A stretch of 32,000 bases of DNA from Candidatus Zhuqueibacterota bacterium (GTDB lineage Bacteria; Zhuqueibacterota; Zhuqueibacteria; Zhuqueibacterales; Geothermadaptataceae). The stretch is from NCBI GenBank assembly GCA_015485525.1, contig WFTM01000433.1, forward strand, positions 1 to 32,000, in the 5' to 3' direction. The position numbers and the translations under genes are program-made. The notes beneath the pieces are model-generated. The model saw nothing but the letters and a program-made list of their open reading frames with translations. It ran no database searches and was not told where the DNA came from. Below, in pieces: positions 1,360 through 31,187 of the stretch (within the stretch, counting starts at the first letter, position 1; every line of letters begins with the position of its first letter).

Positions 1360-1711
1360 AGGTATGGTCTGTAGCCTTAAAAATTCGTGAATTTTGCAAA
1401 ATTCCATCTCACCCCGATGTTGCACACAGACGCATTGCATACGAGGCGAGCCAGTTTCGATCAAAAACGAACCCAAAGATAAGGCTTTTCAGGAAATAAG
1501 CAAGTTTTTTCGTATCAATACGACTGTTCCGGAAGCGAACGGCAGGCCAAGAAAGGTTGCACGACCAACCTGAGTGATTTCTTATTTTGAACAAAAGAAG
1601 CCGTTTGATATGGAAAGTTTATCTTTACCTGTCCCATAGGGTCTGAGTATCTCGTCCATACATTTGGGCTGAAGCCAGGTTTCACCGCAAAGACGCGAAC
1701 TGCGCGAAGCG

Positions 1712-1928
1712 GTCTGGCTATCCATTTGACTCAGCAATGTTGCATTTTTTCAGCCAGACCGCCAGAACACAGCACGTGCCTGCACCAGAACGGTCATTCC
1801 GGTTTCCCCGCAGGGAAAGACCGGACTCTGGCACGTGCCCGAAAAGATGAGATTCAGGCACGGCGCTGCGCCTGGCCGGAATGACAGATGTCGGAATCTG
1901 AGCCGGGCATGGGTTGCTGAGTAAACTG
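1712..1928 (+). repeat. Family A repeat, copy A1: MITE-like element with terminal inverted repeats and internal nested hairpins
   Basis: It aligns along its full length with 31188..31416. The left end is gtctggctatccatttgactcagca and the right end tgctgagtaaactgg (inverted). Internal hairpins are tccggtttcccc-gca-gggaaagaccgga and attcaggc...gccggaat, plus a long-range inverted pair gtcattccgg / ccggaatgac. Confidence 0.8.
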
Positions 1929-2144: not shown

Positions 2145-2783
2145 TCATTTCACCAGCAAACTGACGCGCCGGTTGACGGGCAGGCCACGTCTGGTTTCAT
2201 CTTCCGGTTCACGCAACCGGGTATCGGCAAACCCCACTGCGACGAAGCGCTGCGGTACAAGCCCGTGATCGATCAGATAGCGGATTACGCGAGCGGAGCG
2301 CGCTGTGGAGAGCTCCCAGTTCGATGGATAGATCGCGTTTTTTGACAGAGGCAGGGTATCGGTGTGGCCCTCGACCTGGATGCTGCGGTCGGCGACTTCT
2401 GGTGTACGAAATATGGCTGCAATAGCGTCGAGCACAGGCCCTGCCTCTTCCTTCAATTCTGCCCGGCCGGAGGCGAAGAGAATCTTGTCCTGAAAATTCA
2501 GCAGCAGGCCATCTTTGGTCAGCTCAACATCGACACTTTCCTGCAACTGATATTCGGCGATGAGCTGCTGGAGTTTTTCTTCCAGTTGGTGCAGAGGCAT
2601 CTGGCGGCTCTCGCTGAAGTATTCCATGATCATCTCAAATTTGCTCTGATCAACCTGCGAGATGGCAAAAAAGAGCACAAAAAAAGCCAGCAGCAGCGTC
2701 ACGAGATCGCTGAAAGAGAGCAGCCAGGGTTGATCATCAGCAGCAGGCTGCCGGCGCAGGAGTTCGGGCATTTCGATTTGCAT
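2145..2783 (-). CDS. motB: MotB-type stator subunit: OmpA-like peptidoglycan-binding domain plus an N-terminal TM helix carrying the conserved Asp
   Basis: This is track ORF 2145..2894. I moved the start to the ATG at 2783 (MQIEMPELL), 4 nt after the MotA stop. The TM segment PWLLSFSDLVTLLLAFFVLFFAIS contains the MotB/ExbD-type protonatable Asp. The C-terminus IQVEGHTDTLPL...NWELSTARSARVIRYL...NRRVSLLV is an OmpA-family domain. Confidence 0.85.
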   Translation of the reverse strand: MQIEMPELLRRQPAADDQPWLLSFSDLVTLLLAFFVLFFAISQVDQSKFEMIMEYFSESRQMPLHQLEEKLQQLIAEYQLQESVDVELTKDGLLLNFQDKILFASGRAELKEEAGPVLDAIAAIFRTPEVADRSIQVEGHTDTLPLSKNAIYPSNWELSTARSARVIRYLIDHGLVPQRFVAVGFADTRLREPEDETRRGLPVNRRVSLLVK

Positions 2784-2787
2784 GGCC

Positions 2788-3594
2788 TTACGCTGCCTTT
2801 CTGATTTTCCTGCGCGCGCCGCTGTCCGCTCGGCTGAGCTTGAACCGCTCGGCCGGACTGAGCAGAGCAGCGAGTTTATCGCGGACGTACACATAATTCT
2901 GCTTATCGTACATCATCAGTACAGCCTCTACCTGCAGGGTTTCGTGCAGCAGATTTGCCTCCGCACGCTCCTTGATCTTGGCAGCAATCGGCGCAAAAAT
3001 CATATTGGAAAGAATCAGGCCGTAGAACGTCGTGGTCAGCGCGATCGCCAAACCGATGCCAACCTGCCCGGGCTGTTCCTGAAGTGTCATCAGCATATTG
3101 ATCAGACCGATCAGCGTGCCGATCATACCAAAGGCCGGTGCGATCCTGCTCATGGTCTGAAACAGCTCGCTCTGCTTGTGCTCGCGGACCATTTTCCAGC
3201 GTACATGGTCTTCGAGAATAGCCCTGGCCTCTTCGCGCGTGTAGCTGTTCGCGAGCATGGACAAGCCATCTTTAAGCACCCACAAGCCATTGAGATTCTT
3301 AATTTTTTCGCTCAACGCCTGCACGCCTTCTTTCTGAAAAATCCGCACAGCCATGACGATATTTTCGATCGCCTTGACATTGTCGTGCACGCCGGAACGG
3401 AAGATGACAAAATAACTCTTGAACCCTCGCAGGACTTCCGGGAAAGGAAACGAAACAAAGGTTGCCGCAATGGTGCCGCCCAGCACGATAGCAAGGCCCT
3501 GCCAGTTGACGAAAACCTCGGGCTCGGCGTTGCCGCTCAGGATGCCGGCGATAACGAGAAACCCGCCGACGAGTATTCCGAATAGTGTAGCCAA
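2788..3594 (-). CDS. motA: MotA/PomA-type stator channel subunit (4-TM MotA/TolQ/ExbB family)
   Basis: 268 aa. There are two N-terminal TM helices, a cytoplasmic loop of about 100 aa, then PAFGMIGTLIGLINML and LTTTFYGLILSNMIFAPIAAKI, the family signature helices. The tail is MotA-like. The start codon is TTG at 3594-3592, preceded by gaggagag 8 nt upstream, and an in-frame stop lies 4 codons upstream, so no ATG alternative exists. Confidence 0.85.
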   Translation of the reverse strand: MATLFGILVGGFLVIAGILSGNAEPEVFVNWQGLAIVLGGTIAATFVSFPFPEVLRGFKSYFVIFRSGVHDNVKAIENIVMAVRIFQKEGVQALSEKIKNLNGLWVLKDGLSMLANSYTREEARAILEDHVRWKMVREHKQSELFQTMSRIAPAFGMIGTLIGLINMLMTLQEQPGQVGIGLAIALTTTFYGLILSNMIFAPIAAKIKERAEANLLHETLQVEAVLMMYDKQNYVYVRDKLAALLSPAERFKLSRADSGARRKIRKAA

Positions 3595-3711
3595 AGTGAT
3601 CTCTCCTCAAAAATTGAACGCCAGAACACAGCGTTGCGCCGGAACCAGCGGATATTCAGGGAATGATAAGAGCGTGGCCGGTGCTGCACAGGCACAGGCT
3701 GCCTTTTCCTC

Positions 3712-4404
3712 TTACTCTGCCGTGCGTACTGCATCCTTCTTGAACCGCGCCACCAGTTGCTTGATCTCATCGAGACCGGGGTTGATCTGCAGGGCGTTTT
3801 CCCACGCCCGTACAGCTTCTGCAACATCGCCGTTGACGAAATAGATCGACCCGCCCAGGGCATAAGCCGAAGCGGTCTCCTGTTTTTTCAGGGAAGCATT
3901 GAGCACGCTCAGCGCCTGTTCATATTTTTGCTGATAAAAGAGCTTCTGCGCCAGATTGATATCCCGGATGATGTCATCGGTGAGGTTCTCATCCGCAAAA
4001 CGGAAGTCTCCGCGCTCCAGTTCCGTATTCAGGCTGTCGGCTGGTGGTGATGCAGGATCACCGGTGAGCAGGCTGTCGCCGTGGGTGATCTCAAGCTCTC
4101 CTTCGCCGCGTTTCAGCTCAAGGTTGAGATTGGTCTGCAGCGGGTCCAGCACCATTTCCACTTCGGTGTCGTTCTGCTTGAACCGTATGTTGAGGTAGGG
4201 ATAGCTGACGGTTTTTTTCAAAACCGACCCGTCCAGCTCAGTGGTCATATAGTTCCGTTTTGCCGCGCTGGTGTCGGGCAGGTCCGCCACGAGTCGCTTC
4301 TCTTCCTGCACGTGCTGCACAACCGTCTCCTTTTTACCGGCACACCCGGCGAGCACGAGAGCGGAAAAGAACAACACACTGTATCGTTGTTGTCGAAAAG
4401 GCAT
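3712..4404 (-). CDS. TPR-repeat lipoprotein
   Basis: MPFRQQRYSVLFFSALVLAGCAGKK carries a lipobox (LAGC). The C-terminal segment YEQALSVLNASLKKQETASAYALGGSIYFVNGDVAEAVRAWENALQINP has TPR character. Confidence 0.75.
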   Translation of the reverse strand: MPFRQQRYSVLFFSALVLAGCAGKKETVVQHVQEEKRLVADLPDTSAAKRNYMTTELDGSVLKKTVSYPYLNIRFKQNDTEVEMVLDPLQTNLNLELKRGEGELEITHGDSLLTGDPASPPADSLNTELERGDFRFADENLTDDIIRDINLAQKLFYQQKYEQALSVLNASLKKQETASAYALGGSIYFVNGDVAEAVRAWENALQINPGLDEIKQLVARFKKDAVRTAE

Positions 4405-4491
4405 GGCCTGTTCCTCTGCGTTTGAAAGTCTGGGAAGTAACCTGAAATTATATTTGACGTCGGGCCCGGCAGTCGGTTTATGATCCGTGGC

Positions 4492-5625
4492 TCAAAACGT
4501 GTACTGCAGCATGAAAATCTCATACTGCAAACCGTTGATGCGCATCTTGTAGGCAACCTGCCCCTGCTCCAGTGGTACGCCAAGAAATTCCTGTCCCATG
4601 ATCAGATTGAAACCGGTGGAAAAGGAAAAATGCTCGCCGACATCGGTGCGCAGGCCCAGTCCGAGCCCAGTGACATCAGGCATATTCAGGGTGAAATAAC
4701 GGGTCAGAGACAGGTAGAAGGACAGCCAGTCGCTGGTAGCACTCTTCCGGTTTTCGATCAGTGTGGAATAGATCAGCGAGCGCAGGTTATACGACACCGG
4801 ACGGGCTGCCGAGATGCCGTCTTTGCCTTCGGCATAAAAGGAATTGCCGGCGAACTGATCACTGGACAGGCGGACACCTTCGTTCAAAAAAGACAGGCCG
4901 ACACGCAGCTCATAGCGCAGGCGGCTTTTTTCCCAGAGATAATGAAAGACCCCCACATACAAAGACTGATGCGTGATCTTGCCGGAAAAATCTGAGCGCA
5001 GAGCCGTTTCTGCCGCAGCTTCCAGCTCGACGGGGAACACCTCGACACCGCCGATAAAAGAAAATTTGAACGGATTGTTTGAAGGCATACGCATCTGTTC
5101 ATAGGCAGCGAAAGAGCCGGCCCAGAGGACTTCATTGGTGCCGGTGCGGTTCAGGCGCAGATCGAGCATCAGGGCTTTGTCCGGCACATAAGCGAGGTTG
5201 CCTTCGAAGTAGGCATCCACACGCAGGCTGCGGCTGACGCGCCAGAGCTCCCCCGGCGAGGGCAGCGCATTGATGATGGTAAAAGAGGTATCTGTCGAAG
5301 AAATCTTCAGCGTATTGAGCTCCGGCAGGGTCACAACTTTCGGCGTGTCGAGCTGGCGCAGTACTTCGACCAGCCGGTTGCGGAAGTGGTCGCGCAGAGG
5401 CGGTGGAAACCAGGCCTGGTCAGCCTGAATGCGGTACACCGCAACCCGGCCCAGAGTCGGGTCTATGGTGTCGATTTTTTTAGCGACTTCGTCGAGGACT
5501 TCCTCCATCAAGGCCAGCAGCAGGGTGTTGTTATCTTCAGCTTCCTGCCTGGCCGGGGCCTCTCCCGCACCGAAGAGTGCGACACAAACGACAGCGAGTA
5601 CGAACATTTTATTGATCGATTTCAT
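4492..5625 (-). CDS. Outer-membrane beta-barrel protein with an N-terminal periplasmic alpha/beta domain (CsgG/FlgO/TolB-N-like pattern)
   Basis: The signal peptide is MKSINKMFVLAVVCVALFGAGEAPA. The C-terminal half has alternating amphipathic strands and ends in ...EIFMLQYTF, an OMP beta-signal with terminal Phe. The N-terminal block RVAVYRI...VDAYFEGNLAYVPDKALMLDLRLNRTGTNEVLW resembles the domain of the 14675..15400 protein. The start codon lies 4 nt after the stop of the FliG-like gene. Confidence 0.65.
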   Translation of the reverse strand: MKSINKMFVLAVVCVALFGAGEAPARQEAEDNNTLLLALMEEVLDEVAKKIDTIDPTLGRVAVYRIQADQAWFPPPLRDHFRNRLVEVLRQLDTPKVVTLPELNTLKISSTDTSFTIINALPSPGELWRVSRSLRVDAYFEGNLAYVPDKALMLDLRLNRTGTNEVLWAGSFAAYEQMRMPSNNPFKFSFIGGVEVFPVELEAAAETALRSDFSGKITHQSLYVGVFHYLWEKSRLRYELRVGLSFLNEGVRLSSDQFAGNSFYAEGKDGISAARPVSYNLRSLIYSTLIENRKSATSDWLSFYLSLTRYFTLNMPDVTGLGLGLRTDVGEHFSFSTGFNLIMGQEFLGVPLEQGQVAYKMRINGLQYEIFMLQYTF

Positions 5626-5629
5626 GATA

Positions 5630-7453
5630 TCAGCTCACAATCCTTGTCTCATCCTGATTCCCGGGTTTATGATTTTCGCGCACAGCCCTGAGAACCTGCC
5701 TGCGGGCTCGGGCGACGTCATCTTCCGGCGCGTCCTGATTCGCCTCAATGCTCGCCTGTACCAGCTCGGCGAGTTTGTCCGGCAGTGAGGAGATAATCTT
5801 CCCGACGACTTCATCATCAACGCGCACCAGAGATTTGGCCAGAAGCTCGCGATCAACAGCAAAGGCGTACTCGCGCAGTTTTTCGCCGGGCAACTCGACA
5901 AAATCGTTGAAGGTCAGGAAGCGGCGGCGCACACGTTGGGCCAGGTCCATGTCCTGCGTCTCAATCCACGCCAGTGTTTCTTCCTGCTCCTGCTCGTCCA
6001 TGGTTTCGAGAATATCGAGCAGTGCTTCGAGCCCGTTGGCGCGCACGAAACGCATTTTTTCCAGCTCCCGGGCACGCTCTGCAAGCTGGCGGGCAATTTT
6101 GCGGTAAACATCGCTGGGAATGCGCTCGATGCCGCCCATGGATGCGAGCAGTGAGCGGCGCGCTTCCGGCTCCATGGTTTTCAGAAGTTTTGCCGAGCGC
6201 TCCGGACGCAGTTGTGCCAGCACGATTGCTTTCACACCCGGCTTCAACGGTTTGATCAGATGCTGCAACTGGTCATCACTCATCTGGTAGAGGAATGCCA
6301 GCGCGTCTTCCTCCTCGGCATGTCTGCGCGCCTGAAGCGCCAGAAAGCGCAGGTCCTGATCGAACAGTTTGAGCAGGGCGAGACTACGCTCTTTTTGCTC
6401 TTCTTTATCCAGCCGGTCGAGCTCAAGCTGGATTGCCCCGGAGACTTCAGGCCCGAGATACGGCGAGAGCAGGTCCAACAGGCGCGGCGAAGCAGCCGCG
6501 AGCACGATTGCGGTATCGCGCACGCCCTGCTGGCCGTTTTTCTGCATCCACTGCTGAAAAACGCGCGCTGTTGCAGCCGGCGTTCCGACGATGGCGTCGA
6601 TGGTGGCGGCTTTCATTTCTGTCAGCTCTGAACGCTGTTTTACGGCTTCAGAACGTTGCTTTTCCCGATCCCGGGCAGGGAGCGCATGTGCTGAAGCAGC
6701 AGGGGGATTTTCCGCATTTTCGCCCGCCGGGGGACGCAGATGCCGGACGATCGACCGCAAACCGAACAGGAACAGAGCGACCAGCAGAATAGCCAGGCCG
6801 GCAGCAAAAAAGTATGGAAACCAGGCAGACTGCGCGAGGGCGCTTTCCTCAGCCGGCTTCTGGAGTGGTGAAGCAGGCACTTCATCCTGCTGCTGAAGCT
6901 GATCAGGTTCCTGGGGCTCGGGCTTGACCGGAAAAGGCAATGCTTCGACGCGTACCCGGTCGCCGCGCGAGGGGTCTAATCCGGAAATCAAAGCCACCAG
7001 TTTGCGGATGAAGGTTCTGTCCTGTTCTGAAAAAGCATCATCCACCAGGACGGTGGTGCGGATTCTGTTGATAACAATACCAGCCGGCTGCTGAGCCGTG
7101 TCTGCTGTTTCTTCACGGGCTGAATTCGCCGAAGGCTGGTCCGGGACATAGGGCAACCCGGGCAGATTGGTGATATCGCGGCTGAGCAGCGCATCGGGCA
7201 GTTTCGGCAGATCAGCCTGTGGCGTGCGTTTCTCCAGTTCAACATCAGCCCGAACGACAAATTTATTGTGCGGGAAATATGCCAGCAGGGCATTTTCGAG
7301 GTTCCAGCTCAGGTTTGCCTCCATCGAAGCTTCCAGGGCTTCGACAGAGTGAGCGGGGTAAAGTCTGCTCTGGGCCGGGAGAGCCGGCGGAAGAATATTC
7401 CAGACCAGCAGCAGGAGAACGACTGGTTTGACTGTCCTTTTCACGAGTTCCAT
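5630..7453 (-). CDS. Membrane-anchored FliG-like protein: N-terminal signal/TM, a periplasmic FliF/SctJ-type ring-building-motif-like domain, a second TM, then a cytoplasmic full-length FliG (N, M and C domains)
   Basis: This is track ORF 5630..7753. I moved the start to the ATG at 7453 (MELVKRTVKPVVLLLLVWNILPPALPAQS). The second TM is AWFPYFFAAGLAILLVALFLFGL. The last ~330 aa align colinearly with canonical FliG as I remember it: GVRDTAIVLAAASP (FliG_N); KPGVKAIVLAQLRPERSAKLLKTMEPEARRSLL (FliG_M); RRRFLTFNDFVELPGEKLREYAFAVDRELLAKSL...DDVARARRQVLRAVRE (FliG_C, cf. the MFVFEDI.KLDD..IQ..LREVD pattern). The periplasmic part ends in IRTTVLVDDAFSEQDRTFIRKLVALISGLDPSRGDRVRVEALPF, which resembles the FliF/YscJ RBM terminus (..RGD.v.V...pF). 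Confidence 0.7.
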   Translation of the reverse strand: MELVKRTVKPVVLLLLVWNILPPALPAQSRLYPAHSVEALEASMEANLSWNLENALLAYFPHNKFVVRADVELEKRTPQADLPKLPDALLSRDITNLPGLPYVPDQPSANSAREETADTAQQPAGIVINRIRTTVLVDDAFSEQDRTFIRKLVALISGLDPSRGDRVRVEALPFPVKPEPQEPDQLQQQDEVPASPLQKPAEESALAQSAWFPYFFAAGLAILLVALFLFGLRSIVRHLRPPAGENAENPPAASAHALPARDREKQRSEAVKQRSELTEMKAATIDAIVGTPAATARVFQQWMQKNGQQGVRDTAIVLAAASPRLLDLLSPYLGPEVSGAIQLELDRLDKEEQKERSLALLKLFDQDLRFLALQARRHAEEEDALAFLYQMSDDQLQHLIKPLKPGVKAIVLAQLRPERSAKLLKTMEPEARRSLLASMGGIERIPSDVYRKIARQLAERARELEKMRFVRANGLEALLDILETMDEQEQEETLAWIETQDMDLAQRVRRRFLTFNDFVELPGEKLREYAFAVDRELLAKSLVRVDDEVVGKIISSLPDKLAELVQASIEANQDAPEDDVARARRQVLRAVRENHKPGNQDETRIVS

Positions 7454-7632
7454 CCTGTTCTGTATTTGGTGAAATATACAGGGGATATCGGAACCAGAGG
7501 ACAACTCTTGACTGAGGAGATGATTTTTCACCGTATGAATCGGACCTGGCGAGGCATCCTCATCGTGGGGGTGGTGACCAGCGCTGAGGGTGTAGCAGGC
7601 AGGCGAGGCCTGAGAGGTGCAAAGCGGAAATT

Positions 7633-9297
7633 TCAGGGTTTGCGGTTTGTCCCTCGTACCTCCTGTGCCCATTCCGGCTGTGTGCACCGGCACAAGGTCC
7701 GCATGTAGGCGACCAACGACCGGATTTCCGCCGCGCGCAAAGTTTTTCCCCATGCCGGCATGAAGGGATGCTTATCCAGAATCATGCCGCCGGCGGCGAT
7801 GCCATCGAACAGGGTATCGTCTGCCCTGGGCGCCATGGCCGCTCTGTCGGCATGGGCGGTTGGCTTCACGGGTAAAAAGGAGGCGTTAAAGCCGTCTCCC
7901 TGCCCCTGAAGCCCATGGCATGAGGCACAATAGGCACGATAGAGTTCAGGCGCTGAGCGGGGATTTTGCGGGTAAAACCAGGGGGTGAACTCCGGCAGAC
8001 TCTGAGCTGTGGCTGGCCCTGTTTTGTGGGTGAGATATCGGACCAGTGCTTCCCTCCTGCCCGCCGGCATGGGGTGCGCAGGCATAGCGCGGTGGCCCAA
8101 AACCGCCACAGGATCGCGAAGCAGAGCGGCGATAATAGCAGGCTGCAAACGAGAGCCAACCGCTGAAAGGTCCGGCCCGACACGGCCTCCGCGGCCATCG
8201 AGTTGATGGCAGCCGAGACAGGACAGTTTTTCGTGCAGCATTTTTTCGATTTTCCGGCGGGCGAATGGCGATAACGGTGCAGGCACGTCCGCGTTCGATT
8301 CCTTTTCCGGCTTCAGAAAAGTGAGTATTTCGCGGACTTCTTCGTCATCGAGATGAAAGTCAGGCATGCGGCTACCGGAACCGGGGAAATAGCCTGCAGG
8401 ACGCACGACCGTGGGCTTCTGCAAAAAATCTGCGAGCCAGCCGGAGCGCAAACGCCCGCCGGCACCTGCCAGCGGCGGGGCATTGTACTGCCATGGCGCT
8501 TCGAGACCCTTCAAACGGTGGCACGCGAGGCAATTCTGGCTCAAAAACAGCTTTTCCCCAAGCTCAGCCGTTGCGTTGGGGAACGCGGTTCGCGCCTGCC
8601 GGAAGAGTTCTTCGTCCTCTCTTCGCTCATCTTTGCCGCGCGCTGCGAGAAAACGGGCAATCTCCGTAATTTTCCGCCGCGCCCCCGGCAGGCGTTGCTG
8701 CAGGGTTCCGCGTGTCGAATCTGCGGTAAAAAACAGCGCCGGCATGACAGCAGCAGAAACGCCGTAAAACTGAGGCTGAACGAGATAATTTTGCAACCAG
8801 TCCTGCTGCAGCCGCCGGCCCATGCGCGTGAGTTCGGCTGCAGTTCCGGCGCCTGTGCCGTCGAGGGTATGGCACTGCAGGCATCCTGTCTGGGAAATGA
8901 GTTCAGGGGTGGGAATTTTCTCATCGGTATCCGCAGCCTCAGAGATGGCAGCAAATGGCCGCCGGGATGGGTCGGATTTCTGTTCCTGGAGAAAAAGCGT
9001 CACTGCCAGGGCCTGTTCTGCGGAAAAATTGAAATCCGGCATGCGGCTGCGGCCGATATGGACGCGAATCTTTTCAGGCTGCTGCAGGTAGCGGAACAGC
9101 CATGCGGGCTGATATCGTTCACCGGCAAAAGTCAGGTCCGGGGTTTTACTGCGGAAATTCTCTTCCACCGGCACGCCGGGGTGGCAGCCCCCACACCCCA
9201 ACTCTGCCAGCAGATTCTGGCCGGCTGCAGGGGGCGGCGCCACTGCTGAGAGCAGAACGGATATCACTGCCCAGGCTGGTTGTCGGATGGTATTCAT
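7633..9297 (-). CDS. Secreted penta-haem c-type cytochrome (five class-I cytochrome c modules)
   Basis: The signal peptide is MNTIRQPAWAVISVLLSAVAPPPAAGQ. There are five CXXCH motifs: CGGCH, CLQCH, CLACH, CLGCH and CASCH. Each is followed 40-70 aa later by a candidate Met-ligand motif (SRMPDF twice, AVMPALF, HRAMPAH, PFMPAWG). The ATG overlaps the upstream gene stop (ATGA at 9297-9294). Confidence 0.85.
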   Translation of the reverse strand: MNTIRQPAWAVISVLLSAVAPPPAAGQNLLAELGCGGCHPGVPVEENFRSKTPDLTFAGERYQPAWLFRYLQQPEKIRVHIGRSRMPDFNFSAEQALAVTLFLQEQKSDPSRRPFAAISEAADTDEKIPTPELISQTGCLQCHTLDGTGAGTAAELTRMGRRLQQDWLQNYLVQPQFYGVSAAVMPALFFTADSTRGTLQQRLPGARRKITEIARFLAARGKDERREDEELFRQARTAFPNATAELGEKLFLSQNCLACHRLKGLEAPWQYNAPPLAGAGGRLRSGWLADFLQKPTVVRPAGYFPGSGSRMPDFHLDDEEVREILTFLKPEKESNADVPAPLSPFARRKIEKMLHEKLSCLGCHQLDGRGGRVGPDLSAVGSRLQPAIIAALLRDPVAVLGHRAMPAHPMPAGRREALVRYLTHKTGPATAQSLPEFTPWFYPQNPRSAPELYRAYCASCHGLQGQGDGFNASFLPVKPTAHADRAAMAPRADDTLFDGIAAGGMILDKHPFMPAWGKTLRAAEIRSLVAYMRTLCRCTQPEWAQEVRGTNRKP

Positions 9298-10652
9298 GGT
9301 TGATAGTTCACTACAAAAAAGTCGCGGATGATCTTCTTCCTGCGCAACTCCGTGCCTTTGCGTTTGGCCTGTTCTTTGGTGGCAAAGGCGCCGACACGGA
9401 TTTTATACCAGCCGCCTTTTCGTGCTGGTGCAGCCAGGACGGCATCGAGACCGGCCTTTTTCAGCCGGCGCAGTTCTTTTTCCGCACTGCTCCGCTTCTT
9501 GACCGCAGCCACCTGCAGAGCAAAACGGGTATTCTGTGGAATGACCTTTGGCGCTGCGGCCGCGGCCTTTTCGGTCTCGCTCTTTGGAGCCGGCAGAAAG
9601 AGATAGAGCACCAGCAGAAAGACAGCAGCAGCAAGAGTATAATAAACATAACGCCGGTACAGGACAACGCGCTGCCACAGTTGTAAAGCCTGTTGCTGCA
9701 CCAGAAAAACAAGCCGTGCTGCGCGGCCGCTCAGGCTGCGGCTTTCCTGCTCTATTTGATCCTGCTCCCAGCGGGCGATATCTTCGGGCTGAAACTCCGT
9801 GACAACGGTGCGGAGTTTTTCGGCCAGTTCTCCGCTCAGGCCCAGGGCCACGACAGCCTGGTGGCACCTGTACAGCTGGCGATCGATCTCCTGTCTCCTG
9901 TCTTCAGGCCCCTGCTCACGGGCCGCCAGATACAACCAGCAGGCGAAGTCATCATGCCTGTCTGCCCGCAACACCTGCGGCAGACACAGTGCGATGATCT
10001 CTGCTGTCATGCTGCTGCCCTGCTGCAGTGCCTGTTTGTAAAAATACTCAGCACGGAAGTGGGTCTGCCGGTCTTTGAGATAGTGTGCGGCCATGTAGTG
10101 AATGATATCGCGGTCATCCGGCCTGTGTTCATGCAGGGTTTCGGCGAGATCGACAAGGGACAGCGTGAGAACGGGCTGGCGGAGCAGAAACTGTTTGAGG
10201 GCGATGAAGGCATCCTCCTCGCGAATCCCGCGCTGCAGACAGTGCAGCAGCACGCGGCGGTAGCGGGCGGAGGCGACGTTCAGGCGATAAAAATCGAAAT
10301 AGCGACGCAGAAGATTGTTGCGCAGGGTCTCTTTCTGGGCACGGGACAGCAGCCCGCCGCTGAACAAGCGATCGAGCCAGGTAAAGACCTCACTCAGCCG
10401 GTTGGTTTCATTACTCTGCAGAAAATACCAGCCCACGCGGTCCAGCGCTTCGAAACGCCGGCGGCCGATGAGATTGAGCAGGAGGTGAATGGTCAGCAGA
10501 AGCACCACCCAGCTCAGCAGAACAACCGGCACATCGCGGAAGTAGGTTTGCGGGAAGACGAGTTCATGCAGCACAAAAAGCACGGCCAGTGCAACTGGTG
10601 GCAGTGCGACAAAACTGATAAATAGACGCAGGGCAAGACTGTTCATAATCAT
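9294..10652 (-). CDS. Polytopic membrane protein with a large cytoplasmic helical domain and a C-terminal periplasmic SPOR (peptidoglycan-binding) domain
   Basis: 452 aa. Two N-terminal TM helices, about 280 aa of helical Arg/Leu-rich region, a third TM (YVYYTLAAAVFLLVLYLFL), then FALQVAAVKKRSSAEKELRRLKKAGLDAVLAAPARKGGWYKIRVGAFATKEQAKRKGTEL, which matches the SPOR pattern. Confidence 0.8.
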   Translation of the reverse strand: MIMNSLALRLFISFVALPPVALAVLFVLHELVFPQTYFRDVPVVLLSWVVLLLTIHLLLNLIGRRRFEALDRVGWYFLQSNETNRLSEVFTWLDRLFSGGLLSRAQKETLRNNLLRRYFDFYRLNVASARYRRVLLHCLQRGIREEDAFIALKQFLLRQPVLTLSLVDLAETLHEHRPDDRDIIHYMAAHYLKDRQTHFRAEYFYKQALQQGSSMTAEIIALCLPQVLRADRHDDFACWLYLAAREQGPEDRRQEIDRQLYRCHQAVVALGLSGELAEKLRTVVTEFQPEDIARWEQDQIEQESRSLSGRAARLVFLVQQQALQLWQRVVLYRRYVYYTLAAAVFLLVLYLFLPAPKSETEKAAAAAPKVIPQNTRFALQVAAVKKRSSAEKELRRLKKAGLDAVLAAPARKGGWYKIRVGAFATKEQAKRKGTELRRKKIIRDFFVVNYQP

Positions 10653-10693
10653 GGTCGGGTTTGACAGGCGTATCAGCCGAAATGGGGGGCGGC

Positions 10694-12022
10694 TTACTGG
10701 CCTTTCTCCCGTTTCTTCTGAATTTTCTCAATTCTTCCGGCTGCTTCGCGGGCCTTTTTGTGCTCGGGATAATTTTTCAAAACCAGGTCATAGCAACCGA
10801 GGGCGCTTTCCAGATCATTGGCTTTGTTCTCATACAACCGGCCGGCCTTGACGAGCAGGTCAGGTGCCTTGTTATACGTCGGGAAAGCTTCAACGATCCG
10901 GACGTATTGCAGCGCGGCATTGACGTAATCCTTGAAACGGCGTTCATATAGATAAGCTGCCTCTTCCAGGGCTGGAATCGCCCTTTCATCATCGGAATAG
11001 TTGTCCGCAATCTCGAGGTAGGTGGCGATGGCACCGGCATAATCTTTTTTCTCATCTGTCTGGATTTCTGCAACCTGCAGCAAAGCATCGACAGCATACG
11101 GAGAGTCCGGGTACTGCTTGACGACACTGCGGTAGGTCACCATGGCAGCATCGGGCTGCTTGAGTTTTCTCTCTTCTACTTCAGCCAGCAGGAAGAGCGC
11201 ACGCGGCGCAACAGGACTTCTGGGCTGCTCAGATACGATCATTTTGAAGACCTCTGCAGCGTCTTCCGGCTTGTCGAGTTTTTTGTACAACAGCTCCCCC
11301 CGCCGGAAACGTACATCAGCGAGCTGGGGGCTCAATGGAAAAACACTCTCGAATTTAAACAACAGCGCGGCAGCCTGATGCTGTCTGCCGGCACGCAGAT
11401 ACATCCCTGCCTGCATGGCCAGCATTTTATCACCGCGGTCATCGTCCGGGAAACGCGTCAGCCAGGAGCGCGCTTCACGCAGCAGCCAATCGTTCAGGGA
11501 ACGGATATCCAGAGCATACAACGCCTTGACCAGAGCAAACCGCCGGCCCGCATCACTCTGGCCATCGCTGCCGTTCATCAACGCGAGTACAGCGTCAGCG
11601 TTTTTCTTAAAACTTTTCTCCTTAGCCACCAGGGCACGCACACGATCTCTGGCCACATCCAGGTCTTCAAAATCGGGATACAAAAACAACAACTTCAAAT
11701 ATGAGGCTATGGCCTCAGGTCGCTTCCGCTTCTCGGAATAGACCTCAGCAAGCATCGCCTGCACGCGTGGCGCATATTTGGAGAACGGAAACGTTTGATG
11801 AAAACTCTCCAGTTCCTCGATCAGCAGGGTGTAGTTTTTTTTCTCATGCTGGTCGTAAACATTTTTCAGCCAGTCAAAAACACGATCATCCTGCACGCCG
11901 GACTGCGGCTCCGGAACAACCACAGCACCCGGCGAGCCCGGGGCTTCCTGAAGCAACAGCAACACAGCCAGAATGATAATCTTAGCCAGTACAAACTGTC
12001 TTCTGCTTCTGCCATTTTCCAT
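10694..12022 (-). CDS. TPR-repeat protein (YbgF/BamD-like TPR_6 type) with an N-terminal signal anchor
   Basis: 442 aa. It starts MENGRSRRQFVLAKIIILAVLLLLQEAPG. Helical-hairpin units recur, each ending in ..YP(D/E)S(P)..(A)..A.. (for example VVKQYPDSPYAVDALLQVAEIQ and VLKNYPEHKKAREAAGRIEKIQ). It is the first gene of the minus-strand cluster. Confidence 0.8.
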   Translation of the reverse strand: MENGRSRRQFVLAKIIILAVLLLLQEAPGSPGAVVVPEPQSGVQDDRVFDWLKNVYDQHEKKNYTLLIEELESFHQTFPFSKYAPRVQAMLAEVYSEKRKRPEAIASYLKLLFLYPDFEDLDVARDRVRALVAKEKSFKKNADAVLALMNGSDGQSDAGRRFALVKALYALDIRSLNDWLLREARSWLTRFPDDDRGDKMLAMQAGMYLRAGRQHQAAALLFKFESVFPLSPQLADVRFRRGELLYKKLDKPEDAAEVFKMIVSEQPRSPVAPRALFLLAEVEERKLKQPDAAMVTYRSVVKQYPDSPYAVDALLQVAEIQTDEKKDYAGAIATYLEIADNYSDDERAIPALEEAAYLYERRFKDYVNAALQYVRIVEAFPTYNKAPDLLVKAGRLYENKANDLESALGCYDLVLKNYPEHKKAREAAGRIEKIQKKREKGQ

Positions 12023-12154
12023 GCCGGTACCCTCGTAAATTTGAATTCACCAAAAACGAAAATCGTTTTCGCGCTGTGCACTCCTGATGTCTTATCAAGG
12101 TCCGGATAACATAGGCAACACGGAAGAAAATTAAAAGATAATTGTGACATCTTG

Positions 12155-12178
12155 GGATTATCCATTTAACTCATCCAA
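12155..12178 (+). repeat. Solo family-A left-terminus-like sequence
   Basis: ttatccatttaactcatcca versus the A1 left end ctatccatttgactcagca (16 of 19 by eye). No matching right terminus was found. It directly abuts the family B cluster. Confidence 0.4.
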
Positions 12179-12189
12179 GCAGGCCTTGC

Positions 12190-12690
12190 GCAGGGAGCCA
12201 TCCCCGGTATTCCAGCCACAGAGAAGCGGTGTGACGAGAGGAAGCGGGGAAGAAAAACGTGACAAAACATCAACAAACCTTCAGCCCTATCGGATCAGTC
12301 ACGATCAGTAAAACAGACCCGGACGAAGCGAGTGCGGGCTCGCAGAAGCACACTCGCCTACAGCGTCACACTACTGAAGCGAAGCGGAGTGTCTGAATCT
12401 CCCCGGCATGGATGCGGCTTTTGGGGCAGGTGGTATTTCCTTGCGCTGGTGACCTGCCGCAGGAGCGGCAAGAGGGCGTCACACCGCAGGAGCGGTGTGA
12501 CGAGAGGAGACCTGGACGAAGCGAAGCAGTGTGCCGGCAAATCCCCGGCGTGGGTGCAGGCTTTTGGGGAGCGGTATTTCGTTTCGCTTGTGGACTGCCC
12601 CGCCGATGCGGGGCAACTGGGGCGTTACACCGCAGGAGCGGACGTTACACCGCGGGAGCGGACGTTACACCGCGGGAGCGGTGTAACGAG
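12190..12690 (+). repeat. Family B repeat cluster: one truncated unit (about 12190-12242) plus two tandem units (about 12316-12509 and 12510-12690)
   Basis: Units I and II align as ac(c/t)ggacgaagcga..gtg..aatc(t)ccccggc(a/g)tgg(a/g)tgc(g/a)gcttttgggg..ggtatttc..cgct.gtg.actgcc..gc..cgt(c/t)acaccgc-agga-gcggtgt(g/a)acgag. The terminal hairpin cgtcacaccgc-agga-gcggtgtgacg lies at 12477-12502. The same modules recur at 14413, 16711, 24742 and 24905. Confidence 0.8.
12623..12688 (+). repeat. Head-to-tail 20-bp triplication of the 5' arm and loop of the family B terminal hairpin
   Basis: cgttacaccgcaggagcgga (12623-12642), cgttacaccgcgggagcgga (12643-12662), then the complete hairpin cgttacaccgc-ggga-gcggtgtaacg (12663-12688). 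Confidence 0.85.
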
Positions 12691-12792
12691 GGCTTTTCAG
12701 ATATCGCGCTTTCTCTGTGCACTGTGCTTCTTCTGAAAGCAGAGTGCATGCGCAATCAGCAACCGTCATTCCAACCTCCGGAGAGTACCACA

Positions 12793-13167
12793 ATGTCACA
12801 TCTTCAGCTCAGCAGCAACCGGCTCCCGACCAACCGCCGGTCGGCTACACGAATTCAGACCTGGCGTATCCTGTCCTTTTTGAAAGATGACAGCTGGCAC
12901 ATCGGCTATGTCAAGGACATCAGCGAAACGGGCGTACAGATCATCTGCAGCACGCCGCTCTCTCCCGGCGAAAAAACGGCAATCCTGTTCGAAAATATCG
13001 AGCATCTCTGGAATATCATCGTGGAGGGGACGGTGGTGTGGCAGAAAAATTATCATGAGGACCAGGATCACCGGAACACAGAACCGACGATGGGGATTGA
13101 ATTTTTCCAGCGTCTGCCGGTTGAAATCACCCGCTTCGCGCGTGTAAAAATGCGCATGGCCGAATAG
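12793..13167 (+). CDS. Stand-alone PilZ-domain protein (predicted c-di-GMP receptor)
   Basis: This is the C-terminal 124 aa of track ORF 12412..13167. The start is set at the ATG at 12793, with ggagag 9 nt upstream; the ATG at 12748 is an alternative. Both PilZ signatures are present: RRSATR (RxxxR) and DISETG (D/NxSxxG). The upstream part of the track ORF reads through family B repeats. Confidence 0.8.
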   Translation: MSHLQLSSNRLPTNRRSATRIQTWRILSFLKDDSWHIGYVKDISETGVQIICSTPLSPGEKTAILFENIEHLWNIIVEGTVVWQKNYHEDQDHRNTEPTMGIEFFQRLPVEITRFARVKMRMAE

Positions 13168-13200: not shown

Positions 13201-13905
13201 TCACTGATACTGCGTCCAGGGGTAGAGCAGGTTGAGGGCCATAGTGAAAATCGGGCTGAATACCGAATCAAATACCTGCCAGGCGAGCAGGATACCGAGC
13301 AATGAAAACATGGGATTGTGGGAAAACTCCGCAAACCTGCGCGCTGCGCTCTCGCTGAGAAACAATCCGACAACCGCATTGCCATCCAGGGGCGGAACAG
13401 GTAATAAATTGAAGAAACCCAGCAACAGATTGAGCGCAAAAGTAATGCTCAGAAAACTCGCCATCGCTCCCCAGAAACCCGCCTGATGGGCTGCGACCAC
13501 CGTCGTATAGTTGACACTCTCCGGATTATAAAAATAACCCGCAGCGATACCTGCATGGATCAGAGCCGCGGCTATGAGCACCAGCACGAAATTCGCGACC
13601 GGGCCGGCCAAAGCCATCCATGCAGCCCGTTTCGGATAGCGGTCTGCCCACACCGGATCATAGGGCGCACTGGCCCAGCCCAGCATCCAGCCACTGAGGA
13701 TAAACGACAGAAACGGAATGACAACCGTGCCCACAGGCTCACGCTGCATGTGCGGCAAAGGGTTCAGGCTGACTTGTCCGGCCATGGCAGCGGTATCATC
13801 ACCACCGATTTTCGCAGCAAGGGCATGAGCAGCTTCGTGACAGGTAAGCGCAAACAGGAAACAGACGTACCAGATCGGTCCGAGGGCCAGGATATCTGAG
13901 GTCAT
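13201..13905 (-). CDS. Peptidase M50 (site-2 protease family) integral membrane metalloprotease
   Basis: It has an HExxH motif in a TM helix (LTCHEAAHALAA) and the second family motif FFNLLPVPPLDG. The protein is polytopic and hydrophobic throughout. Confidence 0.85.
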   Translation of the reverse strand: MTSDILALGPIWYVCFLFALTCHEAAHALAAKIGGDDTAAMAGQVSLNPLPHMQREPVGTVVIPFLSFILSGWMLGWASAPYDPVWADRYPKRAAWMALAGPVANFVLVLIAAALIHAGIAAGYFYNPESVNYTTVVAAHQAGFWGAMASFLSITFALNLLLGFFNLLPVPPLDGNAVVGLFLSESAARRFAEFSHNPMFSLLGILLAWQVFDSVFSPIFTMALNLLYPWTQYQ

Positions 13906-14412
13906 AATCTACCTTTTGGGTTACAGCCTGAAGAACACCGTTTGTGAAAGAATCGGGCTGAATGTGGCTATCGTCCGGTAAAGCCCGATACTTATAAGCC
14001 GCTTGGCAGGCTTCACACACTGACGGAAAAATAAAACACAACATCTTTATTTATAAAGAGTTAGAAAATTGCGCTGAATGTATGAAATTTGCCTGCAAAA
14101 GTCAAGAACAGGCATTCAGTCGGCGCCTACACTGAGCTGGAAACTCCAACATGGCACCGAAAAACGCTGGAGGGGAAACATACATCCCCGCCCACTCCAT
14201 ACGCCTGGCTTCTGAAAACGCCTGCCGCTCATCACCAACGCCAGAAAAATGTTACACTTTTTTCTAATTTCAACAAAAAAAACAGACCTGCTTCTTCCGC
14301 ATTCCAGTGCAAAAACGCTATAGTACTGAAGACAAGACAGCCTGAAAATTCAGATATGTATAAATTCCGCTCGATCAGATTTATTTTGAAACAGCGTGAC
14401 GCCTGCGCAGAT

Positions 14413-14523
14413 CGATTCCCGGCTCAGCGCTGCTCAAGGATAACAGGCTTTCGGGGCAGGCGGCATCCCGCTTCGTCTATGTACTGCCGCAGGAACGTCA
14501 CACCGCTGGAGCGGTATGACGCG
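14413..14523 (+). repeat. Family B repeat, shortened copy B3
   Basis: gattcccggc..ggataacaggctttcggggcaggcggcatcccgcttcgtctatgtactgccgcaggaacgtcacaccgc-tgga-gcggtatgacg is colinear with 12395-12502. The H4 hairpin is deleted and the terminal stem carries one C/A mismatch. Confidence 0.7.
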
Positions 14524-14674
14524 TGCAAGATGAGAGTACTGAACAGACTTGCTGTTGTTTTAAAAATGTGTTCGTGCAGAGAACGTATCCAAAAGAGATT
14601 CCTGCGCACAAGATAAAATGTACACCGACCGTCCACTCCGGCCGGGTGGATCGATTTACTAGGGAGAGTAACTA

Positions 14675-15400
14675 ATGAAGAAATTCGTCGTGGGGCTGCT
14701 GGTTTTCGGCATGGGCTATTTCAGTGTTATGCCGGCAGTACTGGCTGTGACGCAACAGGGGAGGCGCATCGTTATCGCCGTGGTTGACTTCAAGAACAAC
14801 AGCGGCAACCCTCAGCTCGATAACTTCGAACAGGCCATCCCGGAAGCACTGATCACCAACCTTGCCCGCAATGAACGCATCGAAATCGTCGAACGCACCC
14901 AATTGCAGAATGCCCTTTCAGAGCTGCAACTGAGCATGTCCGGCATCGTCGATGCGCGTACGGCTGTGGAGGTCGGCCGTGCAGTCGGGGCAACGGCGAT
15001 CCTGGTCGGCAGTTTTCTGCAGATCGAAGGGCGCATTCAGATCAACGCCCGCCTGATCGATGTGCGCACCAGCCGGGTTTTGAAGGCAGCAGGGGTTCGC
15101 GGGCGCAGCGGAGCGGAAATCTTTGAACTCATGGACAGACTGGCCGCTTCCATCGAAGCGCGCCTGTTTGGCAAAAGTGTTCCGCAGACGCAAAACAGAA
15201 CGTCAGTAAACGGAGCATCGCGCCAGCGCAGTAACGCGAATGCTGCTGAAAAGTCCGGTGGTTCGTTTCTCAGCTCACCGATCTTTTGGGGTGCCATGGC
15301 GCTTGGGGCCGGAGCCGGGGCTTTCCTCGTTTTGGGGGCTACGGAAGATGAACCAGCCAAAACCGCGGTGACCATCACCATTTCTCTGCCCGACAGATAA
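14675..15400 (+). CDS. CsgG/FlgO/LpoB-like periplasmic alpha/beta-domain protein with a C-terminal hydrophobic segment
   Basis: The SD agggagag lies 7 nt upstream. The signal peptide is MKKFVVGLLVFGMGYFSVMPAVLA. The block RIVIAVVDFKNNSGNPQLDNFEQAIPEALITNLARNERIEIVERTQLQNALSELQLSMSGIVD...ATAILVGSFLQIEGRIQINARLIDVRTSRVL is the pattern shared by CsgG, LpoB, FlgO and TolB-N-like proteins. A C-terminal segment FLSSPIFWGAMALGAGAGAFLVLGA follows. Confidence 0.65.
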   Translation: MKKFVVGLLVFGMGYFSVMPAVLAVTQQGRRIVIAVVDFKNNSGNPQLDNFEQAIPEALITNLARNERIEIVERTQLQNALSELQLSMSGIVDARTAVEVGRAVGATAILVGSFLQIEGRIQINARLIDVRTSRVLKAAGVRGRSGAEIFELMDRLAASIEARLFGKSVPQTQNRTSVNGASRQRSNANAAEKSGGSFLSSPIFWGAMALGAGAGAFLVLGATEDEPAKTAVTITISLPDR

Positions 15401-15519
15401 ACCCGGGAAAAGCATCCCGATGCATGCGCGATTCATCACATCACGCAGGGATAGCGGAATAAATACCAGAAACCGAAAAAAAGAACAAATGATAACCATC
15501 ATGGAAACAAGGCGTTATA

Positions 15520-16530: not shown

Positions 16531-16608
16531 AACCGGCTGCAGTTTACAGCGCAGATGACACACTTCAGCCTCGCTCGCTGCGAGGTGTTCTGTCAGAAAA
16601 CTTCTATG

Positions 16609-24364: not shown

Positions 24365-24741
24365 ATCGAACCTCCTGGGTCGCGAAAAGTCCATCCCGGT
24401 AGAGTCAGAAAATTTATCATTCGCTTAAAAACCAGAATACCTCCATCAAAGGGCATACCAAACAGCCCCCTGAAAAATTTTCAGCCATCACCGGGATGGG
24501 GACTGCGATGCACGTGGCGTGCCACAGTCCGGTGGTGAATTCCGGTTAAACAGAGTTATCGGCAGAGCAGAAAGAAATATAGCCCAAAAGTAACAACCCG
24601 GAGACATGTCCGGAATAACCGCAAAAGAATCAGAAGATTAGGTCAGATAAAAAAAATCAGTCACTCAGGCGATGTGGTGCATCAACTGAAAAAATGTGTC
24701 ATATTTTGAACCAAAACGGGAAGTGGCACCCTGGCAGTCGA

Positions 24742-29393: not shown

Positions 29394-29452
29394 CGTACCG
29401 CTCATCCCGGCGATGCGCAAATTTGTGAACAGCCCCGGGTAAAACCCTGCCA

Positions 29453-31134: not shown

Positions 31135-31187
31135 CAGCTCGAACCGTTTGCGTGGTTTATGAATATATATAGGCGCGGTATGGCTTT

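Follow-up and report, generated by a model that had tools for sequence, protein, structure and literature searches.

Stator units of the MotA5B2 type are ion-driven rotary motors that push on FliG in flagella; to our knowledge FliG has been shown as a stator target in flagella only, and each of the remaining 5:2 motors described (Ton, Tol, Agl, Gld, Zor) works on a partner of another kind. The flagellar FliF, which by itself measures about 550 amino acids (aa), forms a ring of some 33-34 subunits, and its first two ring-building motifs (RBM1 and RBM2) make up the PrgK-homology region that houses the export gate. In Vibrio (the MotX/MotY T-ring and the FlgO/FlgP/FlgT H-ring) and in Campylobacter (PflA/PflB), stators are scaffolded by tetratricopeptide repeat (TPR) or Sel1-like repeat (SLR) proteins and by outer-membrane lipoproteins of the LpoB/FlgO fold. 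The nearest precedent for the locus described here is the FliF-FliG fusion of the Chlamydiaceae, a natural fusion in organisms without flagella (Bergeron, bioRxiv 10.1101/023564). We have analyzed a 32-kb stretch of DNA, hereafter the window, from a Candidatus Zhuqueibacterota bacterium (WFTM01000433.1, positions 1-32,000; GCA_015485525.1), whose minus strand carries five adjacent genes, g4 to g8, for a FliF-FliG fusion, an outer-membrane protein, a TPR lipoprotein and a MotA/MotB stator. We take the finding to be that of a flagellar rotor-stator core redeployed as a stand-alone cassette, and a full-text literature search, whose coverage left out most subscription journals and which took in PMC12505986, gave no description of a FliG-MotAB system outside flagella, in agreement with the suggestion that the system is undescribed.

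The original prediction, made from the letters of the DNA before any database search, had taken eight minus-strand open reading frames (ORFs), running from 12022 down to 2145, as one envelope-spanning system. The coordinates were reproduced, with the start of g4 at 7453 and that of g8, the MotB gene, at 2783; the spacers, when recomputed, had the same values (41, -4, 179, 4, 87, 117 and 4 nucleotides (nt)), and the domain calls for all eight ORFs were borne out by Pfam and NCBIfam searches. The g4 start is the ATG at 7453 (M101 of a 707-aa ORF, 5630-7753), and this start and that of MotB are both backed by homologue lengths and alignments. The grouping of eight genes into one system did not survive: only g4-g8 (2145-7453) are kept together, g1-g3 recurring solely in one near-identical locus, L006 (related loci bear L numbers throughout), and the conservation of neighborhood that had been proposed as a check accordingly holds across related loci for g4-g8 and fails for g1-g3. 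The five genes of the cassette are as follows.

5630-7453, minus strand: g4, FliF(RBM3)-FliG fusion, 607 aa (Pfam YscJ_FliF_C, FliG_M, FliG_C)
4492-5625, minus strand: g5, outer-membrane protein, 377 aa (AlphaFold and Foldseek)
3712-4404, minus strand: g6, TPR lipoprotein, 230 aa (Pfam TPR_2, TPR_1, TPR_16; LAGC lipobox)
2788-3594, minus strand: g7, MotA-type stator A subunit, 268 aa, TTG start (MotA_ExbB, 2.8e-22)
2145-2783, minus strand: g8, MotB-type stator B subunit, 212 aa (MotB_plug, 1.4e-17; OmpA, 3.2e-16)

Related loci were reached via exact-protein look-up or a scan of species-representative genomes, and they show a conserved order, namely the FliF-FliG fusion, a g5-like protein of ~370 aa, a TPR protein of ~220 aa, MotA and MotB, with g4-g8 colinear in all 19 further loci of sufficient length. 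The carriers are uncultured sediment bacteria and comprise KSB1, metagenome-assembled genomes (MAGs) labelled Calditrichota, Fibrobacterota MAGs and two deep metagenomic lineages, L006 coming from a vent MAG (HyVt-473, DRLW01, labelled Bacteroidetes); identity is 27-33% in a Fibrobacterota MAG and 25-33% in the two deep lineages. Among the assemblies with the cassette are GCA_029261995.1, GCA_037446635.1, GCA_054026595.1, GCA_025450675.1 and GCA_022562085.1. The flanking genes differ at every cassette locus, no flagellar gene lies within 7-10 kb of the cassette in any of the 12 annotated related loci, and a Pfam scan of the 20 ORFs flanking the cassette in the window agrees with the prediction that the 32 kb hold no further flagellar gene. 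The five genes travel together across deep divergence, and the data support a genetic lock between a flagellar-type MotA/MotB stator on the one side and, on the other, a FliG-like protein anchored in the membrane, a barrel of the outer membrane and a TPR lipoprotein. The predicted self-contained trans-envelope rotary or energy-transducing module is hence upheld in part, through this locked partnership and the want of flagellar genes nearby, and corrected as to its size, which is five genes and not eight. With moderate confidence, we regard genes 2145-7453 as a self-contained rotor-stator module that is built from flagellar parts and works without a flagellum.

Within this general picture, g5 adjoins g4 in every KSB1-type cassette, and permuted or reduced cassettes are found in four far more distant relatives (L025, L028, L029 and L030): the order is barrel-like protein, TPR, fusion, MotA and MotB in L029; OprF-like protein, fusion, MotA and MotB, without a TPR gene, in L030; and TPR, fusion, MotA and MotB, without a barrel gene, in L025. 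A TPR gene accompanies the fusion gene in every cassette variant seen but L030. The L025 cassette, on a 2.17-Mb contig (ERZ26859072 ctg12719) that may be a circular assembly, to judge by the '_c' at the end of its name, runs directly (13496-16573) into a MoxR-AAA, DUF58, DUF4381 and VWA operon (Bat/aerotolerance-like) and a pilin-like gene.

The protein that distinguishes the cassette is g4, in which a miniature FliF, consisting of RBM3 alone, is joined to a FliG with all of its N, M and C domains, and we describe it so because its membrane anchor is a homologue of the FliF RBM3/S-ring region by Pfam, by domain profile and by Foldseek. The prediction had spoken of a FliG carried on an inner-membrane protein; the membrane anchoring stands, and it is the generic nature of the anchor that has to be given up. 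The parts of the protein are given below, transmembrane being abbreviated to TM and the predicted local distance difference test of the structural models to pLDDT.

6941-7354, minus strand: g4 periplasmic domain, residues 34-171, RBM3-like ring-building motif
7151-7165, minus strand: LPGLP motif, residues 97-101, within the periplasmic insertion (pLDDT <50 in the monomer model)
6737-6820, minus strand: g4 TM helix, residues 212-239, a hydrophobic helix in the model
5636-6676, minus strand: g4 cytoplasmic FliG region, residues 260-606 (profile alignment and Foldseek)
5741-5785, minus strand: torque-helix equivalent, residues 557-571, LPDKLAELVQASIEA, aligned to 'MSKRAAALLKDELE' of Thermotoga maritima

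The AlphaFold model of g4 (pLDDT 76) consists of a signal peptide, a periplasmic domain, one TM helix and an all-helical cytoplasmic part of ~350 residues (pLDDT ~90), so modelled that the periplasmic fold runs alpha-beta-[insert]-beta-alpha-beta and is split, like FliF RBM3, by an insertion, here of ~50 residues and of low confidence. Pfam YscJ_FliF_C matches residues 118-174 with 27.7 bits against a cut-off of 23.8, Foldseek matches the periplasmic part to FliF S-ring/RBM3 structures (8z5v_A, 8z4d_1, 8ftf_A, 6sd1_A) with probability 1.0 and target TM-scores of 0.43-0.54, and a profile of the periplasmic domain alone has FliF (9yh6) as its sole match in the PDB, with a marginal E value of 0.031 and an alignment that covers the '...RGDxxxVxxxxF' end of RBM3. 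The RGD...FP signature is kept in ~64 of 66 diverse family members. The LPGLP motif, invariant within the KSB1 subfamily, ranks among the most conserved of the whole family (residue by residue, L in 60, P in 63, G in 65, L in 57 and P in 59 of the 66 representatives), and W211, P213, A217 and G231 are conserved in the TM region. As for RBM1 and RBM2, g4 gives no match to YscJ_FliF (PF01514), and its whole periplasmic region extends over ~180 residues.

On the cytoplasmic side, the Pfam models for FliG and MotA, on which the prediction had staked its reading, are all significant (FliG_M 9.3e-10, FliG_C 1.6e-19, MotA_ExbB 2.8e-22). A profile of the g4 family matches the T. maritima FliG-MC structure (1lkv) at 7.9e-23, and Foldseek aligns the cytoplasmic part to full-length Aquifex aeolicus FliG (3hjl) over 321 of 321 columns (E 1.3e-9) and to Salmonella C-ring FliG over 310 of 310; FliG_M and FliG_C exceed the Pfam gathering scores whereas the N domain is visible by structure only. 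The FliG_C part superposes on the FliG bound to MotAB (8ucs_H) with a TM-score of 0.84 and a root-mean-square deviation of 1.8. Unlike the soluble FliG that docks on the FliF C-terminus, g4 is covalently anchored through its TM helix to the periplasmic domain, and it falls below the FliG equivalog cut-off (TIGR00207, K02410; 77.3 versus 226.7 bits, over model positions 109-322 only). The signal peptides of the g4 and g5 families (window 7370-7453 and 5545-5625) end in a conserved Ala-Gln. A Gln after signal cleavage is a habit of secreted proteins of the Bacteroidota type, that is, of the Fibrobacteres-Chlorobi-Bacteroidetes (FCB) group, and this conserved end implies that, once cleaved, g4 has the topology of a type I membrane protein, in contrast to FliF with its two TM segments.

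The g4 family is large. There are 38 full-length homologues at 44-99% identity, which, where named, belong to candidate division KSB1 or to unclassified MAGs, and an HMMER scan of 1.84 billion cluster representatives gave 186 matches at E<=1e-30, mostly of 580-730 aa. About 135 of the best 150 matches have at least 530 aa, most of them align in a single stretch over most of the profile, and at 30% identity more than 20 subgroups can be told apart within the family. The names found among the clusters are KSB1 and one MAG labelled Pseudomonadota, and a profile search of a 5.8-billion-protein set with the diverse family alignment recovered solely the KSB1 set.

The stator encoded by g7 and g8 is a flagellar, PomA/MotP-like MotA/MotB unit with a plug, a channel Asp and a peptidoglycan anchor. 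As predicted, g7 has the four-TM flagellar-stator layout: it aligns full-length to solved flagellar MotA/PomA, residues 5-256 matching residues 10-259 of Clostridium sporogenes MotA (6ysf) at 2.9e-33, and its NCBIfam scores are 138.6 bits for PomA (NF006527), 137.3 for MotP and 122.4 for MotA, with 16 for TolQ. The TM Asp and the OmpA-like peptidoglycan-binding domain that had been read in g8 are likewise confirmed, the former by alignment with the solved MotB of 6ysf and 6ysl ('WLLSFSDLVTLLL' of g8 aligning to 'WLATFSDTITLLL' of 6ysf) and the latter by the OmpA match (3.2e-16). A plug-bearing B subunit together with a PomA-like A subunit places the unit in the 'flagellar' class according to the criteria of a 2025 study of MotAB evolution (PMC12505986). 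All four flagellar-type proteins of the cassette nonetheless score below the NCBIfam flagellar equivalog cut-offs (for g7, PomA 138.6 versus 341 and MotP 137.3 versus 394; for g8, MotD 159.1 versus 283 and MotS 152.9 versus 264).

The two remaining proteins point to the outer membrane. Gene g5 has no Pfam or NCBIfam match, and none of its 38 homologues has an annotated function; its AlphaFold model (pLDDT 83) comprises a signal peptide, a periplasmic alpha/beta domain (~26-175) and eight C-terminal strands modelled as a barrel (187-376), the protein ending in ...LQYTF. Foldseek relates the periplasmic domain to the TolB N-domain (2.8e-7), the LpoB C-domain (4q6z, target TM-score 0.62) and PelC (5t0z), and the strands to the barrels FadL, OmpW, Ail, OprG and NspA, which shows g5, as modelled, to be an outer-membrane barrel carrying a TolB-N/LpoB/PelC-like periplasmic domain. 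Gene g6 encodes a TPR lipoprotein, with TPRs at about residues 147-216 and a LAGC lipobox that can be read directly in the translation. Elsewhere in the window (14675-15400, plus strand) lies a gene for a lipoprotein that matches CsgG, LpoB, FlgO and TolB_N and is of the same fold class as the g5 periplasmic domain, followed at 15520-16530 (plus strand) by one for a putative lipoprotein of 336 aa with no family match; the former shows no link to the cassette in other loci.

In a profile alignment with T. maritima, the EHPQ of the FliM-binding EHPQR motif aligns to P-L-K-P in g4 (within a KPLK motif, K401 to K404), and across the wider family the E is kept in 54 of 66 representatives while H, Q and R are not conserved; this loss fits the absence of fliM, neither fliM nor fliN being found in the window or in the 12 annotated related loci. 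At the position of Escherichia coli FliG R281, g4 has K, and 62 of the 66 representatives have K or R. The positions of D288 and D289, by contrast, are occupied by A and S in the KSB1 subfamily including g4 and are acidic in many other subfamilies. In MotA, 'ARREGLLSLE' of 6ysf aligns to 'FQKEGVQALS' of g7, so that the R90 and E98 positions are Q and S; KSB1-subfamily MotAs have Q or H at the former and S, M, L or A at the latter, and some distant cassette MotAs retain R/K and E/D there. PMC7564593 pairs MotA R90 with FliG D289 and E98 with R281, the former being a known contact. The cassette MotA has R or K at its R90 position where the FliG beside it is acidic at the D289 position or an adjacent one (L025, L024 and L030) and Q, H or E where FliG is neutral there (the KSB1 subfamily, L021, L026 and L029), which means that the charges of this pair are present or absent jointly in seven of seven lineages, as might be expected of a private, co-evolving rotor-stator pair.

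Independent information on flagella in these bacteria comes from a published gene table for KSB1 (PMC9012183, Table S7), in which some clades have full flagellar gene sets. Two genomes, GCA_002085355.1 and GCA_014729735.1, have one copy each of fliG, motA, motB and flgD, and zero for all other flagellar KEGG orthologues listed, including fliM, fliN and fliF and, further, flhA/B, fliPQR, fliI, flgB/C/E/G/H/I/K/L and fliD. Among the 12 flagellated clade IV genomes, eight have two copies of fliG, and seven of those eight also have two of motA; fliM is present at most once in these flagellated genomes, and fliF once in all but one. The orphan or second fliG is very probably the cassette, because the IMG database names several members of the fusion family (P0017, P0031, P0033, P0084, P0144, P0160 and P0207) 'flagellar motor switch protein FliG'; cassette locus P0006 comes from a genome outside the table (GCA_022562085.1). 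This pattern is the opposite of the scenario that would have made g4 an ordinary flagellar gene, namely a complete flagellar regulon without another fliF or fliG. The flgD of the two non-flagellated genomes is probably a match to a FlgD-Ig domain. The window itself encodes, at 17183-22141 (plus strand), a 1652-aa FG-GAP/ASPIC-UnbV repeat protein with a C-terminal FlgD-Ig/CHU_C domain (type IX secretion sorting), and the cassettes of L001 and L003 have similar FG-GAP/Por_Secre_tail genes in their vicinity; such FlgD_ig matches are the probable source of the 'flgD' counts that the table lists for KSB1 genomes without flagella. It also follows that cassette genes annotated as fliG, motA and motB, which appear as orphan or doubled counts, inflate the predictions of flagellar motility made in surveys of MAGs.

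How such a cassette might work can be outlined from the parts. Through its RBM3, g4 would oligomerize into an inner-membrane ring presenting a crown of FliG C-domains, a ring being anticipated because of the homology to RBM3 and because FliF and engineered FliF-FliG fusions form rings (PMC11481574 reports S-rings of engineered Vibrio fusions, 8z4d). Peptidoglycan-anchored MotA5B2 units would turn this ring, ion flow being converted into torque on the FliG torque helix. Since the cassette has no FliM/FliN switch, export gate, rod, hook or filament, the mechanical output would be delivered in the periplasm, and the most likely route would have the conserved LPGLP insertion of the ring act on the TPR lipoprotein and the outer-membrane barrel protein. 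The LPGLP segment could be a partner-binding or a collar segment, and the insertion is the likeliest route because TPR domains typically bind extended peptides. The output, for its part, might move or remodel some component of the outer membrane or the cell surface, or it might tether the envelope. We propose, tentatively and as something plausible that falls short of probable, a new type of bacterial envelope machine: a minimal FliF/FliG ring turned by MotAB without secretion apparatus or filament, whose rotation is passed to outer-membrane partners and which is widespread in uncultured FCB-group and other bacteria.

Several observations weigh against this account and against the rotor-stator module on which it builds. 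The KSB1 subfamily lacks both the canonical MotA charges (R90, E98) and the FliG acidic pair, so that its interface may work differently or not at all. The joint variation of R90 and D289 is suggestive only, because it comes from seven lineages without phylogenetic correction. In L028 the fusion gene stands without an adjacent MotAB, and for a ring to rotate while tethered to partners in the outer membrane is awkward in mechanical terms. The equation of the extra fliG of Table S7 with the cassette derives from IMG names and not from sequence, and many cassette-bearing KSB1 lineages are probably flagellated, which leaves room for a functional tie to flagella.

The explanation that survives best beside our own, unlikely as we judge it, is that the five proteins work across the envelope as a force transducer or tether of the kind known from Tol-Pal/TonB, without continuous rotation, the stator pulling or ratcheting FliG so that the g4 periplasmic domain shifts and acts on the barrel and TPR partners, with a role, for example, in outer-membrane integrity, invagination or transport. 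The set of partners does resemble Tol-Pal, since it includes a TolB-N-like domain and a TPR protein as well as an OmpA-like anchor and a component in the outer membrane; the window has a YbgF/CpoB-like gene upstream, the L025 variant sits beside a MoxR-DUF58-VWA operon of envelope type, and the KSB1 subfamily is without the canonical torque charge pairs. The stator, however, is of the flagellar type (TolQ 16 versus PomA 138.6 bits) and has the plug typical of flagellar B subunits; it engages its partner via a FliG fold, not via a TM helix of the TolA/TonB type; RBM3 is a ring-building module; and the R281-equivalent charge is kept family-wide. Assignment to a Tol/Exb-type motor at the family level was also tried and rejected, the TolQ score of 16 comparing with a cut-off of 221 bits, TolA and Pal being absent from the cassette and the g5 N-domain alone having the TolB-N fold. 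Nor is the cassette a Zorya or other defence system: PADLOC detects a generic ZorB similarity in MotB (70 bits) and no match for MotA, g4, g5 or g6.

A self-contained rotor and stator would also be the wrong description if the cassette were an accessory or second rotor-stator set of a true flagellum encoded elsewhere, serving an alternative basal body or a periplasmic scaffold like the MotX/MotY, FlgO/P/T or PflA/B disks of high-torque motors, which we consider improbable. Some KSB1 clades are fully flagellated and the genomes with two copies of fliG and motA are the flagellated ones (PMC9012183), and IMG annotates family members as FliG; TPR/SLR proteins and LpoB/FlgO-fold lipoproteins, moreover, are known from the stator scaffolds of Vibrio and Campylobacter. 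In two KSB1 genomes, on the other hand, fliG, motA and motB occur without any further gene for a motor, export, rod, hook or filament part, no flagellar gene adjoins the cassette in the 12 annotated loci, g4 is devoid of RBM1/RBM2 and of the FliM-binding EHPQR, and the co-variation of interface residues within the cassette pair suggests that rotor and stator belong to each other.

That all eight genes form one envelope-spanning system is a far weaker proposition still, which we hold very improbable. The three genes in question are the following.

10694-12022, minus strand: g1, YbgF/CpoB-like TPR protein (TIGR02795, 119.9 bits versus a cut-off of 90.1)
9294-10652, minus strand: g2, SPOR-domain membrane protein (SPOR at residues 374-446, 1.2e-13)
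7633-9297, minus strand: g3, pentahaem cytochrome c, 554 aa (five CxxCH motifs)

They share strand and short spacers with the cassette (41, -4 and 179 nt), the arrangement is kept in L006, and a scan for sigma-70 promoters and intrinsic terminators, whose models do not include FCB-group promoters, finds no terminator-like site on the minus strand of the 179-nt spacer between g3 and g4, for which reason g1-g3 may be co-transcribed with the cassette in the source organism. L006 belongs, however, to the same or a sister species (its g1-g4 products are 91-98% identical to those of the window) and is for that reason silent on long-term linkage, whereas no other locus examined has g1-g3 in its flanks, not even those of relatives at 44-51% identity. 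They are same-strand upstream neighbors, outside the conserved cassette, and form in themselves a tight group of unusual combination (spacers of 41 and -4 nt), in which g2 has, by eye, three hydrophobic segments.

Finally, it is barely credible that the cassette has no current function and is what decay has left of a flagellar system since lost, for although its parts are flagellar-derived, its four flagellar-type proteins score below the equivalog cut-offs and canonical motifs are lost, dozens of lineages at 20-50% identity have all five reading frames intact, LPGLP, RGD..FP, KPLK and the MotA TM3/TM4 core persist as invariant motifs, the gene order and the non-flagellar partners are conserved, and the family numbers at least 186 clusters at 50% identity.

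Some other features of the window deserve mention. Divergently upstream of g1, at 12412-13167 (plus strand), lies an ORF for a PilZ (cyclic di-GMP-binding) protein (4.8e-10). PilZ proteins of the YcgR type act as brakes on flagellar motors where MotA and FliG meet, and the gene was considered as a YcgR-like brake of the cassette and rejected; no PilZ gene lies near the cassette in any other locus, and since the proximity is not kept it is probably coincidental. An intergenic element of ~100 nt is repeated in the window, with the core TGCTGAGTnAAnTGGATAGCCAGA and copies at 1705-1822 (minus strand), 31181-31292 (minus strand) and 29300-29400 (plus strand), three copies comparing with zero core matches in 100 shuffles; a degenerate 3' remnant occurs ~130 nt upstream of g1, at ~12153-12177 (minus strand), the copy in L006 (1-95), ~85 nt upstream of its g1, is a full one, and another copy in the window ends ~47 nt upstream of the start of an aminotransferase gene. 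The element, which has only a weak consensus structure and no match in Rfam (there are zero Rfam family matches in the 32-kb window), could serve as a promoter or in regulation, or it could be a small repeat of the mobile kind. At 22904-24394 (minus strand) is encoded an OmpA-family outer-membrane protein with an N-terminal beta-barrel and a C-terminal OmpA domain, whose long Asp-rich 'DxDxDGxxD' run resembles calcium-binding thrombospondin type 3 repeats.

If the cassette is what we take it to be, the rotor-stator core of the flagellum can exist and be selected alone, without export gate, axle or filament, a conclusion that bears on how the flagellar motor was assembled from pre-existing modules. 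An envelope machine of the proposed kind would have arisen by exaptation of the flagellar motor core, or else it would be a relative, still extant, of the rotor-stator module from before that module was united with type III export. In either case, it would offer a system of five proteins, far simpler than the flagellum, for studying how FliG and MotA generate torque.

Set against known systems, the cassette resembles the stator scaffolds of Vibrio and Campylobacter in that TPR/Sel1-type proteins and outer-membrane proteins of the LpoB/FlgO/TolB-N fold class stand beside a PomA-like stator; those scaffolds are, however, built around a complete flagellar basal body, and no sequence similarity of g5 or g6 to the scaffold proteins is detected (g5 has no Pfam match and g6 matches generic TPR models only). 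With TolQR-TolA-TolB-Pal-CpoB, ExbBD-TonB, AglRQS-Glt, GldLM/PorLM and ZorAB it shares an ion-driven inner-membrane unit of the MotA/ExbB family with outer-membrane or periplasmic partners, and its folds (TolB-N-like domain, TPR protein, OmpA-like anchor) recall Tol-Pal in particular; yet FliG and rings of the FliF type are foreign to all of these non-flagellar 5:2 motors, their A subunits belong to the TolQ/ExbB or the GldL type, to which g7, with its TolQ score of 16 against a cut-off of 221, does not conform, and the cassette B subunit differs from theirs in having the flagellar plug. The Chlamydiaceae fusion has in common with g4 a shortened periplasmic RBM region of FliF type and a cytoplasmic FliG-like domain, but measures ~330 aa, combines an RBM2-like motif and one further RBM with a region that is FliG-M-like only, and has no reported stator partner, whereas g4, at ~600 aa, joins an RBM3-type domain to a whole FliG and is tied to MotAB. 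The core of the flagellar motor itself differs in that the cassette has FliF and FliG fused and RBM1/RBM2 absent, has no FliM/FliN, export gate, rod, hook or filament nearby, has lost EHPQR and, in the KSB1 subfamily, the R90/E98 and D288/D289 charges, and has an outer-membrane barrel and a TPR lipoprotein as obligatory partners. The two have in common the RBM3/S-ring domain, the FliG N-M-C fold with an equivalent of the torque helix, a MotA_ExbB core that can be aligned end to end, and a MotB in which a plug and a channel Asp are combined with an OmpA-like anchor, and they likely share the working principle of a 5:2 stator that pushes on FliG_C.

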